Below are positions 4,683 to 15,600 of a DNA stretch of 64,000 nucleotides, piece after piece. Origin of the DNA: a virus (taxonomy: Duplodnaviria > Heunggongvirae > Uroviricota > Caudoviricetes); IMG/VR virus record IMGVR_UViG_3300026549_000001, positions 58,569 through 122,568 of that record. One strand, given 5' to 3'. The stretch's first letter is position 1, and each line of letters starts with the position of its first letter. The translations under genes were made by a program, and so were the position numbers. The notes beneath the pieces are model-generated. The model was not told the DNA's origin. It saw nothing but the letters and a program-made list of their open reading frames with translations, and made no database searches.

Positions 4683-5153
4683 TTATGTACTATGTAAAAG
4701 TTCTACAAGTTCACTTGCTTTCATAGATGTTTCCTCTCCATCTACTCTTACTTTTATAGTATCATTTTCATTATATTCCCTACCTGTAACATAAACCTTG
4801 TCAGTTTTTTTACTTGGCAAATAATCTGTTAAGGATTTTATTCCCATCTTTGCCATTTCCTTATTTCGCTTATACATACATAATCTTGCAATGCGTAATA
4901 ATTCAACCGCCTCTTTAACACTATTGGCAACACCAACTATTCCGTTCATTCCTTTATAATTAGAATATTCAACTTGCTTAATATCAATCAATCCTAATGC
5001 AATCTTATCTCGGTGTTCGATACAATGTATTATAAGATTCTGGGTTAAAACGGAGTTATGAGATTTAATTCCATTGGTAATATAAGAGCCTGTATTTGTA
5101 CTGACACAAAAACAAGGTAGTTTGCCAACAGGTTCACAAGATAATAGTTTCAT
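4683..5153 (-). CDS. split-intein C-fragment (33 aa) fused to FtsK-like ATPase fragment 2
   Basis: MKLLSCEPVGKLPCFCVST...NGIKSHN|SVLTQNLII...LIDIKQVEY...MYKRNKEM; the +1 Ser is the last Walker A residue; AAGGA RBS. Confidence 0.9.
   Translation of the reverse strand: MKLLSCEPVGKLPCFCVSTNTGSYITNGIKSHNSVLTQNLIIHCIEHRDKIALGLIDIKQVEYSNYKGMNGIVGVANSVKEAVELLRIARLCMYKRNKEMAKMGIKSLTDYLPSKKTDKVYVTGREYNENDTIKVRVDGEETSMKASELVELLHST
5055..5153 (-). other. intein C-fragment (blocks F and G)
   Basis: PCFCVST (Cys at the F4 position) and KSHN followed by Ser. Confidence 0.9.
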
Positions 5154-5180
5154 AATTACTTCCTTTCAAGATAATAATAT

Positions 5181-5203
5181 TTCTTTTTAGTGACTAAAAA
5201 GAA
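5181..5203. other. perfect 10-bp hairpin downstream of tnpB (possible IS end, omega-RNA element or terminator)
   Basis: TTCTTTTTAG-TGA-CTAAAAAGAA. Confidence 0.4.
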
Positions 5204-5218
5204 TTTATTCTATCAACC

Positions 5219-6445
5219 TCAAATTATAAGGTTTACCCGAACAGGGTTTAGTACACACCCAATATCCAATGGTTTTTCAACATCTTGGAATACTTTTCTC
5301 ATTATTTGATAAGCCCCATTTACATCTGCGTTTATTAATGTACCATCATTACTTCTAAACAATCCTCTGTTTACTCGTCTTTTTGGGTTATAGTATTCTT
5401 TTAAAGGGGGTTCATTATCTAAAAAACTTGTACCCGAAGTGTAACTTTCTTCGGATAAAATGAAATTAATACCTTCTTCCTGACATTTATATTTTAATTT
5501 TTGTATAAATGAATAGTATGGTATTTGAGCAAAATTCTTTAGGCGTACCCCCTGTTTTTGATATTTATTGTGTCCAACCACAATAGAGGTAATACCCAAA
5601 GAAAGACAATGGTTTACAATATATTTAGAAACTCGGTGCAAAAAACAATCTATTTTATCTGCCCTTTTATTTTGCAAACCATATAATAGATGACTATACC
5701 CAATATCATTTCCATTTCTATCTAATTCAGCTTTTACTGAATTAATGCGATAATTGAAGTAGTTATTACAAGATTTTAGACCTTTACCATTTATAATAAT
5801 TGGTTTATTAAACATATTATCAACAAAGGTTACAAAGTTATCTAATCCCAAGTCTATACTACCTATTGCCCCGCATTCATTAATTTGTTCTGAAATATCA
5901 ATAGTATATATTAATTCCACAATGATTCTTTGGTTATGGGGTACAAATCTACATTGGTTAAAGTTTACAAGTCTACTATCTTTAATAAATTGTGGTTGAA
6001 GTGTAAATCCACACAAAGATTTGCTAAAATGAATTAGCCCGTCTTGTTTTAGTCTACAATTTGATTTTGTCAATGAGAATTCAGTTACACCATCTTTTTT
6101 CAAATATTTAGGCAGTTGTGGTCTGCCTTTATATTTTGATGGATTATTTTTCCAATCCTTTATAGTAACAAAAAATGATTTCCAATTATCTTCCAAACGG
6201 CGAAGAATTTGCTGACTGCCGCTTGATAATTCTAATTCCCAATAGTCAGGGTATTCTAAATTACTCTTAACTAATTTATCAACCTCGCCATATCTCAACC
6301 ACTTACCATTTTCAAGAAATTCCTTACGAACAAGATAATTGCCGTGGTTATATATGTTCTTGGCAATGTGACATTTTTTAAATAAAAGATTGTACCACTT
6401 GGATTGTCTATCTATTATATGTTTTTCTGTTCTTTGCACTAACAC
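5219..6445 (-). mobile_element. tnpB: TnpB RNA-guided endonuclease, non-autonomous IS200/IS605-like (IS1341 type)
   Basis: KNIYN N-terminus, P.LPKY, RuvC-I SIDLG, EESYTS, RuvC-III INADVNGA; no tnpA adjacent. Confidence 0.9.
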
Positions 6446-6450
6446 CTATA

Positions 6451-13117: not shown

Positions 13118-13129
13118 TTTTATATGTAA

Positions 13130-13753
13130 TTATTGTTGTTCTCCACGCACAAACACTTTCCATTCAGTTGCAAACGGAGTTACACAAGTTGCGTGAAATA
13201 TAACATCGTTAAACTGTTTGCGTAATTTATAATATATCGGGTTTGGGGAATCGGTTTGTCCATATAAACCTGTTTCGTATTCTGTATCGGATAAAGCAAC
13301 AAACCCATGCTTTTTAAGAATATCCTCTGATAAAAACACATTTAATCTCTCACACGGAGCTTCTAACAAATATGCTATATATACATCGGCATCCTTAACC
13401 GCACAGTCCGAGCAATATATTTCACCCTCTGTCGGCTCGAAGTAATTTCTTCTCCAGTCAGCCATATACATTGGGGTAATACGCCTACACCCATCGCAAA
13501 TATAAGCCTCGTCTGAATAATAAAAAGCATCAGCTATATAATATATAAAGGCACATTGACTTTTTAATTTGGTATCATAATCTTCTTGTGTGATATAAGA
13601 ATTAGCTAATAATATTTCTCCTATTTTTGAATTAACTTGTTCCATATCTTCTACAGATTGAAATAACATTGCCATTTGTCCATAGCTGTCTTTCCTATAT
13701 TCATAATAACAATTTGTGGCTTCTTGTAATTCTTTTAATACAGTAGCTACCAT
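13130..13753 (-). CDS. hypothetical protein with CxxC...CxxC
   Basis: CDGC and CSDC; GAGG RBS. Confidence 0.6.
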   Translation of the reverse strand: MVATVLKELQEATNCYYEYRKDSYGQMAMLFQSVEDMEQVNSKIGEILLANSYITQEDYDTKLKSQCAFIYYIADAFYYSDEAYICDGCRRITPMYMADWRRNYFEPTEGEIYCSDCAVKDADVYIAYLLEAPCERLNVFLSEDILKKHGFVALSDTEYETGLYGQTDSPNPIYYKLRKQFNDVIFHATCVTPFATEWKVFVRGEQQ

Positions 13754-13765
13754 TTATTACCTCTT

Positions 13766-14281
13766 TTAAGAAATAGATGCAGTTATAGTGTCTGCCCAAC
13801 TTACTACGGAGTCAAAGTCAGATTCTTCAAGGTCATCGTATTCGTCTACTGTTAATCCGATAACATAGGTAATAGAACCCGTAGGAACATCATGAGAAGA
13901 TTCACACAACTTTATACATTTGTTAGTATTGGATATTACGGAAAAACTAACCTCATAGCCTCTCTCAAAGGCTTTTCCAATTGTGTCCACTATTTTATAT
14001 CCACTTGCACCGTTCCATCTGCAACCGTGAGCCATAACAAGATAATGGGGAAATTTATCTATGAGTGTTTCTACATAATATTCAAACTCATCTTTCATAA
14101 ATTCGCTACTATCCCAATGAACATATTTATCGGGTATGTCAAACTTATAAATAGTGGCAAGGTCAACAGACATACCATCTTCTACATCATCATACCCAAT
14201 ATCAGCAAACATCTTTTTTACATTTTCATCATCCCCGTTTTCTACATATACATAAGTAAACATATCAAACAAGTTATCCAT
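13766..14281 (-). CDS. hypothetical protein
   Basis: 171-aa acidic ORF, AGGAG RBS. Confidence 0.6.
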   Translation of the reverse strand: MDNLFDMFTYVYVENGDDENVKKMFADIGYDDVEDGMSVDLATIYKFDIPDKYVHWDSSEFMKDEFEYYVETLIDKFPHYLVMAHGCRWNGASGYKIVDTIGKAFERGYEVSFSVISNTNKCIKLCESSHDVPTGSITYVIGLTVDEYDDLEESDFDSVVSWADTITASIS

Positions 14282-14298
14282 AACAATTCTTCTCCTAA

Positions 14299-15600
14299 TT
14301 ATTCAATAATTTGTTCTATATAAATGGCTTTACCTCCACCCGTATTACGAGTATAGAGGGCTTTATATGGATATATATTTCCACCACTCCATAATGGCTC
14401 TTGTGTGTCGGTAATTAAAAATAAATGATTTTCGGAATTAACCTTGATACATCTTACTGGCTCAATAGACACTTCATCTTTTGCTATTAATCCATAACTC
14501 TCTAATATATTGTTGGTGCTTCCAAGAACTCTGTCTGTGTATAATTTCAATTCTTCTGCGGAAGTTTCAGCATACCCTACATTTAGTTTGCGTTTATTTT
14601 TAAAGGTTTCAGCAGATTTTAATTCTTTGGGGAATTTATGTATTTTATCAGAAATTACATTTATTGTATTCAGACCTGATGCAAAGGTAAGACTATAAAC
14701 TTTATCGGGAATTAGTATATCATGTACTTCCACAACCTTGACTGGTTTATTGTTTATATCAAATACCATATCGCCCACTTCAATAGTAGCCATTGTTTTA
14801 TATCCTTTTGTAGTAGGAATAACAGTATTTAATCCTAATGGCGCACCACTAATAAGACTTTGTGGCTGTCGAGGTAAAGTAGTATCTTCAGGAATATAAT
14901 TACCTTTTTCATCTTTATATTGACTATGGTATCTTCTACTTTTAGGAACAGCATCAATTACCCAAGACACTTCACCTTTACCAGAAATACCCAATGGCAT
15001 CTCTCTAAAGTGTTTTAACCAACTACCCGCCCAACGAGCCATATTCGGGGGTTTATCGTTTCCTACAAAGGTCATATATCTTTCTTCAAGATGTAACTCA
15101 TATCCCCAAGTGAAATTTGGTAAGAAAGAATTAAGCTGTTGAAGAATAATAGATAATACTTTTTCATCAAATGAAGTAGGTTCAACTTCTACATCTATTT
15201 TATTGATATTACCATACTTATAGCCTAACTTGAAAGGTACTTTATTATAATCTAACCCCTCACCTTTCTTGTCAACCATTTTTTGTAGGATTTCATATAC
15301 TTGTTGAATCTCTTTTCTTTGTTCTTCAACTTTAGATTTTTTGATAGTCATAAAGACCATCATAATAATAAGGGAAATAACAGCGTAGCCTAATACAATA
15401 CCCCAATAAGCACTTTTTAGAGGACTTATTTTAGGAACTAATATTTGAGCAATTATCCCCACAAGAAAAAGAACAGCTAAAATAATACTATCTCTTTTTG
15501 AAAAAGAATAGCTTTCTTCCACTTCGTCAGAAATGCCTAATATTTTATTAGCGGCAAATTGTGATATTGCTACTATTATAAAATATATTAGTATAAACAC
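14299..15600 (-). CDS. FtsK/TcpA-like ATPase fragment 1: membrane anchor, start of Walker A, cis mini-intein, 9-aa split-intein N-tag
   Basis: three hydrophobic N-terminal segments; PLGISGKGEVSW...PQSLISGA|intein|TGGGK|AIYIEQIIE-stop; GTG start with AGGAGG. Confidence 0.9.
   Translation of the reverse strand: MFILIYFIIVAISQFAANKILGISDEVEESYSFSKRDSIILAVLFLVGIIAQILVPKISPLKSAYWGIVLGYAVISLIIMMVFMTIKKSKVEEQRKEIQQVYEILQKMVDKKGEGLDYNKVPFKLGYKYGNINKIDVEVEPTSFDEKVLSIILQQLNSFLPNFTWGYELHLEERYMTFVGNDKPPNMARWAGSWLKHFREMPLGISGKGEVSWVIDAVPKSRRYHSQYKDEKGNYIPEDTTLPRQPQSLISGAPLGLNTVIPTTKGYKTMATIEVGDMVFDINNKPVKVVEVHDILIPDKVYSLTFASGLNTINVISDKIHKFPKELKSAETFKNKRKLNVGYAETSAEELKLYTDRVLGSTNNILESYGLIAKDEVSIEPVRCIKVNSENHLFLITDTQEPLWSGGNIYPYKALYTRNTGGGKAIYIEQIIE
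14302..14328 (-). other. 9-aa intein N-fragment AIYIEQIIE
   Basis: directly follows the Walker A Lys, at the same GK| site as the Ala-starting intein in the VirD4-like gene; block-A-like hydrophobic pattern. Confidence 0.7.
14344..14841 (-). other. cis class-3 mini-intein (166 aa) inside Walker A
   Basis: starts PLGLNTVIPTTKGYKTMATIEVGD, block B SDKIHKF, block F EPVRCIKV, ends YTRN before +1 Thr; removal gives GA|TGGGK. Confidence 0.9.

Follow-up and report, generated by a model that had tools for sequence, protein, structure and literature searches.

A likely natural three-piece split intein at the Walker A Lys/Ser bond of an FtsK/TcpA-like ATPase in a jumbo-phage-like mobile element

Results

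A Hint domain encoded by three separate genes

The window analysed here, 64,000 nucleotides in length, covers bases 58569-122568 of the 250,568-bp viral-catalogue record IMGVR_UViG_3300026549_000001, and its minus strand carries the gene of an FtsK/TcpA-like DNA translocase which, by homology, is broken at the Lys/Ser bond of the Walker A motif. The break appears to be occupied by a natural three-piece split intein, for which productive trans-splicing is likely; this we infer with a probability of about 0.7. Judged by alignment, three gene products correspond by homology to successive segments of a single Hint domain: a 9-residue tag (IntN) at the end of the first ATPase part (piece A), a free-standing core of 175 residues (M-intein), and a 33-residue C piece (IntC) leading into the next ATPase part (piece B). 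On the same grounds, the homology of the fragments and their layout are close to certain, and the recurrence of the tag motif and of the MKW start of the core places the arrangement far beyond chance. The residues, coordinates and minus-strand orientation of the three pieces, as well as their spacings of 1.5 kb and 7.1 kb, agree with those of a preliminary description of this DNA (Table 1). Besides a TnpB-like gene and a homing-endonuclease gene, about 14 other open reading frames (ORFs) lie in the two gaps.

Table 1. Features of the split intein locus and of its surroundings, in window coordinates. Here and in the text, a slash within a sequence marks an intein-extein junction
Feature	Position	Strand	Remark
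Piece A gene, 433 aa	14299..15600	-	76 homologues, 57 clusters with GGGK, tag and stop
Contiguous intein 1, 166 aa, inserted at GA/T	14344..14841	-	Weak PT-HINT match; intein-free alleles
TGGGK, five-residue internal extein (Walker A)	14329..14343	-	Between cis intein 1 and split intein
IntN tag AIYIEQIIE, 9 aa	14302..14328	-	Directly after TGGGK, followed by TAA
Free-standing Hint core gene (M-intein), 175 aa, no extein	12254..12781	-	Homologues, fusions, dN/dS, complex prediction
Block B S47-K-D-H50 of the core	12632..12643	-	S47 and H50 invariant in 18 sequences
Free-standing homing-endonuclease gene, between core and IntC	6451..7203	-	phrog_3339 'homing endonuclease', E 1e-34
TnpB/IS605 OrfB-like gene, directly upstream of IntC	5219..6445	-	OrfB_IS605 E 3e-10; Cas12f1-like TNB E 4e-10; phrog_506 transposase E 2e-36
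IntC piece, 33 aa, blocks F and G	5055..5153	-	Separate same-length ORF in P0001-P0004
C-extein piece B, from Ser+1 (5054-5052)	4683..5054	-	Pfam FtsK_SpoIIIE positions 68-144
ATPase piece C (Walker B)	2002..2424	-	FtsK_SpoIIIE positions 161-219; 12-aa tag of a further split intein at its end

Piece A consists of a hydrophobic segment (residues 63-86), the N part of the ATPase up to ..LISGA, a contiguous cis intein (intein 1), TGGGK, the tag and a stop, and the ATPase resumes after the Walker A Lys in piece B, whose ORF including IntC extends from 5153 to 4683 (-). The intact homologue P0094 is closest to 6o1w, a 'DNA translocase coupling protein' (E 1e-18), and then to FtsK 2iuu (E 8e-16).

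The insertion point can be read from intein-free alleles. Nine piece A homologues devoid of the split intein (no tag, core or IntC) read TGGGK/SVxxQN continuously, and P0097, a near relative of locus L005, is such an intein-free allele; the boundaries of the split intein are thus exactly Lys/Ala...Asn/Ser, an in-frame insertion at a conserved host site. The upstream insert is also missing in some intein-free alleles (..GA/TGGGK), which means that inteins are inserted independently at two sites of the P-loop GATGGGKS, separated by five residues. Cis intein 1 starts with Pro1, has a Cys at F:4 (block F VRCI) and ends in YTRN/T, its boundaries being confirmed by the same kind of alleles.

The N-terminal tag

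In the 57 homologue clusters, the tag follows GGGK and precedes a stop, with the consensus [AS]-I-[YW]-[IV]-x-Q-x-[IV]-[ED]. Position 1 is Ala in 42 of them and Ser in 15, Gln6 is invariant (57/57), Ile or Val occupies position 8, and Glu or Asp predominates at position 9. Its length ranges from 9 to 19 residues, the minimum of 9 being found in seven clusters. As the N-exteins of these clusters are only 40-60% identical to that of the window, the tag must be under selection. It is the equivalent of the first strands of a Hint domain: matched by eye to the first nine residues (block A) of a typical intein, its Ala stands at Cys1 and its Gln at the conserved Thr. A short IntN thus ends the N-extein gene while the rest is supplied in trans, as in inteins split at S1, with the difference that in the window, L009 and L005 the remainder consists of two polypeptides instead of one. 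Read-through or frameshifting from the tag into the next ORF was considered and rejected, given that stops occur in every frame, that the ORF which comes next is an unrelated one and that 1.5 kb separates the tag from the core.

The free core and its link to IntC

The core protein starts with MKWKDV, followed later by a W-x-P-x-E-G segment typical of the intein N lobe. A search of 1.84 billion representatives (E <= 0.001) gave 20 core homologues and no contiguous chain of tag and core. In nearly all the homologues, the MKW at their own beginning aligns with residue 16 of the long ORF, which fixes the start at 12781. Residues W3, D14, H22, S47, H50, W157 and L166 are invariant. The block B His sits in the core ORF (S47-K-D-H50), and the catalytic residues are spread over three genes, as had been described.

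Thirteen of the core homologues run without a break into ..GKLPCFCVSTDTG.Y..NG..HHN/SV.. and the ATPase, i.e. they form atypically split two-piece inteins with a long IntC. The segment that follows the core in these fusions aligns with piece B residues 2-33, and the free cores (window, P0011, P0012 and L005) end exactly where the fused ones enter the IntC segment. On alignment evidence, the core product is orthologous to the first ~165 residues of natural core-IntC-extein proteins, and it is this fusion link that marks the 12781-12254 product as the middle part of the split intein at the Lys/Ser bond. The middle piece, considered at first the least certain of the three, has become the best supported, with an orthologue in natural fusions and a fused form that is modelled as a Hint domain (see below). 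Pfam recognises neither the core nor the Hint part of piece A, and Hint_2 has no match anywhere in the genome. The tree of 18 cores is unresolved (11 of 15 inner branches open), so that by the tree a single and a repeated origin of free cores cannot be told apart.

A subdomain of ~95 residues with an alpha/beta fold extends from block B to W157 (window 12330-12620 (-), core residues ~55-150). It might be an insert of the DNA-recognition type, PI-SceI domain I being the second Foldseek match.

IntC reads ..PCFCVST..NGIKSHN, with Cys16 (F:4) at 5108-5106 and His32-Asn33 at 5060-5055, followed by Ser+1. All 18 IntC sequences share C16, T19, H32, N33, S34 and V35, whereas the first Cys of CFC (Cys14) is unconserved; the Cys previously assigned to F:4 is hence both present and invariant in all these relatives. 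Together, the three pieces display the block B His, the C-terminal His-Asn and the +1 Ser that characterise inteins.

Fold and predicted assembly

The natural core-IntC fusion P0013 (residues 1-212) was modelled by AlphaFold2 from an alignment of 18 rows, with a mean predicted local distance difference test score (pLDDT) of 93.4. The model has the horseshoe-shaped Hint fold. Its top Foldseek matches are all inteins, with weak E-values (0.004 and above), and VIA-align also places inteins on top, with Z-scores of 10.3-9.0 and a root mean square deviation (rmsd) of ~1.9 A over ~102 residues; the matches include MchDnaB-1, class 3 Msm DnaBi1 (6bs8), gp41-1, Ssp DnaB and VidaL. Residue 1 of the model corresponds, in these alignments, to residue 15-17 of the solved structures, which implies that only the N-terminal strand pair is missing.

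A complex was then predicted from three chains, for each of which an alignment was supplied: the last 30 residues of piece A, the first 70 residues of piece B and, as the partner, the core. The interface score (ipSAE) was 0.75 in all three runs vs. 0.16 for the best of three controls, a value which may in part reflect likeness to solved split inteins. In calibration, 58 of 80 solved complexes attained the mark, as did 2 of 110 mismatched pairs, the alignments used there being different from those of the present run; these two reservations lessen the weight of the score. At least 88% of the contacts were common to the runs, and the pLDDT of the core was 86. The predicted interface comprises residues 19-30 of the tag chain (GGK and the whole nine-residue tag) together with residues 1-47 of piece B, tag Ile2 being placed against core residue 46, beside block B. 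As a model, the complex supports binding of the three pieces.

At least two further free Hint cores exist in the genome, which leaves room for another assignment: the 12781-12254 product could serve a different split intein or an unrelated role, the tag and IntC acting alone or with another core. This is very improbable. Nine plus 33 residues are unable to form a Hint fold alone, and natural fusions tie cores of this family specifically to the present family of IntC and extein. In the 250-kb genome each piece is present as a single copy (E 1e-64 for the core, 2e-36 for the C piece and 2e-17 for the tag region), with no further match to any of them below E 0.02; the other cores miss the core profile, the next best hit having an E-value of 0.02 vs. 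1e-64. When the core was replaced in the complex prediction, the score dropped to 0.00. Charge complementarity between an acidic tag and a basic N terminus of the core was tried as a general argument and dropped: it is seen in the present element (-2 vs. +5) and fails in the family as a whole (-5 to +5).

Proposed splicing route and class

A splicing route can be proposed from these data. The free core and the 33-residue IntC would come together as an almost entire Hint fold that leaves a groove open, and the C-terminal tag of piece A would dock in this groove as the missing N-terminal strands. Docking would set the Lys-Ala scissile bond beside core His50 and IntC Cys16, and Cys16 would attack this bond as in class 3 inteins, position 1 being Ala. 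The acyl group would move to Ser+1 and Asn33 would cyclise, giving a product with an intact GATGGGKS loop, provided that cis intein 1, five residues upstream, is spliced too. The core, carrying no extein, would form no covalent intermediate.

As to the class, the tag of the window has Ala1 and not the Cys, Ser or Thr of class 1 inteins, in keeping with the earlier observation that an N-terminal nucleophile is lacking, and the class 1 first step is thereby ruled out for this element. The class 3 assignment made at the same time holds in part: the absence of a position-1 nucleophile and the Cys at F:4 (C2:4) agree with it, and the Trp at B:12 (N3:12) and the Thr at G:5 (C1:5) are missing family-wide. 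At B:12 the window has Ile52, as had been noticed, and the family Ile, Leu or Phe; at G:5 there is Ser31 in the window and Ser, His or Asn in relatives. The element is for this reason called class-3-like and not a signature member of the class, the Trp and Thr of the Trp-Cys-Thr (WCT) signature being absent. By their conservation, the invariant Cys F:4, the His-Asn end and Ser+1 would fit the class 3 route (PMC7891396).

Several observations weigh against productive trans-splicing. Ligation of the exteins is itself an inference. The family lacks the class 3 Trp and Thr just mentioned, and its 15 Ser-starting tags mean that it may not share one mechanism. With pieces 1.5 and 7.1 kb apart and a transposase-like gene between them, co-expression is an assumption. 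Moreover, the same ATPase is broken between pieces B and C without any intein, so that at least one non-covalent break is tolerated and, on this reasoning, the Lys/Ser bond need not strictly be joined covalently. The tolerated B/C break and the missing Trp and Thr would also suit a Hint-like complex that only holds pieces A and B together non-covalently, or cleaves them, without ligating the exteins. Such a complex is nevertheless unlikely, given that Cys16, His32-Asn33, Ser+1 and the His of block B do not vary over 18 diverged sequences, whereas a pure docking module would have no need of these residues. The position of the break, between Lys and Ser inside the P-loop, argues in the same direction: chain continuity between these two residues of Walker A is expected to matter for nucleotide binding.

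If splicing does proceed by the proposed route, one core could shed the spent 9- and 33-residue fragments and process further pairs, as it has no extein and both the nucleophile and the cyclising Asn are on IntC. That the free core acts in this way as a multiple-turnover protein ligase is conceivable, albeit doubtful. In that case several orthogonal 'splicase' cores would coexist in the genome, each specific for its own short-tag pair.

Intervening genes and maintenance of the pieces

The three pieces might also be a decaying remnant, in which insertions broke a once functional split intein and left the ATPase dead in this element. A TnpB-like gene, a homing-endonuclease gene and the other ORFs between the pieces would be in line with this, as would the further places at which the ATPase gene is broken. 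Still, the pieces are all intact ORFs, and both the core and IntC have ribosome-binding sites, with the Shine-Dalgarno sequences GAAGGAA, 9 nt upstream of the ATG at 12781, and AAGGAAG, 6 nt upstream of the IntC ATG. No stop or frameshift was seen in the free cores of four lineages. The ratios of non-synonymous to synonymous substitution (dN/dS, Nei-Gojobori) between three-piece lineages are 0.26-0.30 for the core, 0.19-0.23 for IntC and 0.19 for extein B, values that are rough because dS is at or near saturation, which limits their force in favour of a working intein. The three-piece layout occurs again in L009 and L005 with other intervening genes, and no second gene of the ATPase turned up in the genome, the other FtsK_SpoIIIE matches being weak and in other proteins. 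Taken with these points, decay is quite unlikely.

As regards the Vsr-like family, to which the endonucleases of fractured genes belong (Dassa et al. 2009), the endonuclease ORF has, besides its phrog_3339 match, only weak Pfam matches to DUF7487 (E 0.057) and REase_MTES_1575 (E 0.07). A search of window positions 1-16000 against Rfam gave no intron or other RNA family.

Varying layouts in the relatives

The three-piece layout was found in two divergent relatives. In L009, the closest relative (piece A 60% identical), the tag is followed by a 131-aa ORF, a 174-aa core, a 154-aa ORF and then IntC with all the remaining ATPase, while in L005 the stop of the tag overlaps the ATG of the core, which is followed by a zinc-finger/endonuclease gene and IntC. 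A two-piece layout, with the long IntC on the C-extein, is present in P0013-P0018, P0020-P0022 and others, and in L011 two ORFs precede the fused form. The break after the tag (~9 residues) is thus family-wide, and the second break is lineage-specific, at the canonical split and endonuclease-insertion site. In L013, a zinc-finger/endonuclease gene (11301-12335 (+)) starts within the last codons of the tag, which suggests that an endonuclease insertion made the break after the tag. Across the family, endonuclease genes are found at both break points, and the breaks together with these genes fit the gene-breaking model for fractured genes (PMC2677866).

In L017-L020 (~9450-10069 (+)), P0019 and P0023, the core ORF passes block F (..CFCISTDTGRYET) and ends at ..G.YET before block G, which by sequence suggests a second kind of natural three-piece split, positioned before block G. 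The block G piece of this type was not found within 10 kb, nor were the remaining pieces of L012-L014 and L017-L020 within the same distance. A search of viral contigs for loci related to piece A gave no relatives.

Gene order is permuted in L018, where the core gene (9443-10069 (+)) lies 3.8 kb upstream of the N-extein/tag gene (13911-15203 (+)). Locus L005 carries, two codons past the intein, an insert of 336 nt in the C-extein (9655-9990 (+), between HHNSV and AVQNII), GC-richer than its surroundings and with a folding z of -3.3. It has no Rfam match and may be an unclassified self-splicing intron.

Comparison with known split inteins

Inteins have so far been found encoded by one or two genes, three fragments not having been shown in nature (bioRxiv 10.1101/2023.01.30.526203), and no report of a natural three-piece intein was found in the searched literature, which omits most subscription journals. 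Engineered ones were made from Ssp and Rma DnaB, split at S1 and S11 (Sun et al. 2004, as summarised in PMC13014065), and from Npu DnaE and gp41-1 (PMC13014065; bioRxiv 10.1101/2023.01.30.526203). Like these, the element of the window has separate N, M and C pieces, an M piece without extein and a short N piece cut at S1 (~11 aa in the engineered forms); unlike them, its layout is genomic and conserved in several elements, with Ala1 and Cys F:4 instead of Cys1 or Ser1. Natural atypical IntN pieces measure 15-37 aa, the record being the 15 aa of PolB16, with 16 aa in VidaL and 11 aa in the engineered M86 (PMC13014065). Within the searched literature, therefore, the three-piece layout has been published for engineered inteins only, and a 9-aa tag is shorter than any natural one reported.

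VidaL and PolB16 likewise have a short IntN at the end of the N-extein gene, the remaining part of the Hint domain being provided in trans, and the two-piece relatives of the window, which are the commoner ones, have exactly this layout; VidaL (6vgv) matches the fusion model with a Z-score of 9.2. The window differs by its 9-aa tag, by the further split of the long IntC and by Ala1. AceL NrdHF, which was described as the first class 3 intein split in nature, has the deviant triplet MCT (PMC7891396; PDB 6zgq). It resembles the present element in being split, in its internal block F Cys and in deviating from WCT, with a structural match of Z 8.0, but it has two pieces and keeps the Thr, whereas the family of the window has neither Trp nor Thr, an ultra-short IntN and three pieces.

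The best structural matches are the class 3 cis inteins Msm DnaBi1 (6bs8) and MchDnaB-1 (6riy), with Z-scores of 10.2-10.3 and an rmsd of 1.9 A. They share the lack of a position-1 nucleophile and the Cys F:4, but are contiguous, carry WCT and sit in DnaB and not in an FtsK-like P-loop. Finally, the published cases of fractured genes consist of two intein halves with one intervening endonuclease gene (Dassa et al. 2009, PMC2677866). A free-standing endonuclease gene between pieces is likewise found in the window (ORF 6451-7203) and between the core and IntC of L005, the differences being that there are two breaks, that the middle piece is free, that as much as 7 kb of unrelated genes lies between pieces and that, in L018, the core is located upstream.

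For inteins described as products of one or two genes, a natural three-gene case would be one in which the Hint fold has been fragmented further by selfish-gene insertion and yet maintained. A 9-residue N tag and a 33-residue C piece are within the reach of peptide synthesis, with the catalytic core supplied separately, and potential uses are protein semisynthesis, three-input logic gates and conditional ligation. The family is large, with 57 tag-bearing clusters, two-piece forms and at least two three-piece kinds, and lends itself to studies of split-site evolution and of the orthogonality of co-resident inteins.

Other breaks and inteins of the genome

Between piece B (..ELVELLHST and stop, 4683-4700 (-)) and piece C (starting MKEVEVCLNGTDW.., 2400-2424 (-)), the ATPase is broken with no intein at the junction. 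The conserved end of piece B and the beginning of piece C were considered as another split intein, an option rejected in view of the contiguous extein in P0014 and L009; the B/C break of the window would hence be bridged non-covalently or not at all.

The end of piece C (2002-2040 (-)) reads ..RSN followed by a 12-aa tag, PLSLDTLVEIEE, and a stop. The ORF 936-562 (-) is a Hint core ending before block G, and an ORF outside the window (genome 55617-56021 (-)) begins with ..FFVGKILTSN/CGFRCF. P0014 and P0020 have the piece C intein in contiguous form.

A second P-loop ATPase, also outside the window (genome 38131-45452 (-)), is fractured in a similar way: ..AGGTG/CFSEQTPIRMFN.. and a stop are followed by endonuclease genes, by a Hint core on its own ORF (42271-41741) and lastly by ..AILHN/SGKSV... 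Two further ATPases contain LAGLIDADG inteins (window 31301-34039 (-) and genome 47568-49766 (-)). One is TrwB-like, and the intein of the other starts with Pro1 at GSGK/P...THN/T, the same P-loop position as that of the split intein.

The record as a whole has direct terminal repeats. The window has a GC content of ~31%, with nearly all genes on the minus strand. The gene content is mixed and includes a phage tail lysozyme domain, an NlpC/P60 hydrolase, NrdD, a ParA-like ATPase and the TrwB-like coupling ATPase with its LAGLIDADG intein. The record is referred to here as a jumbo-phage-like mobile element, whether it be a phage or a conjugative element.

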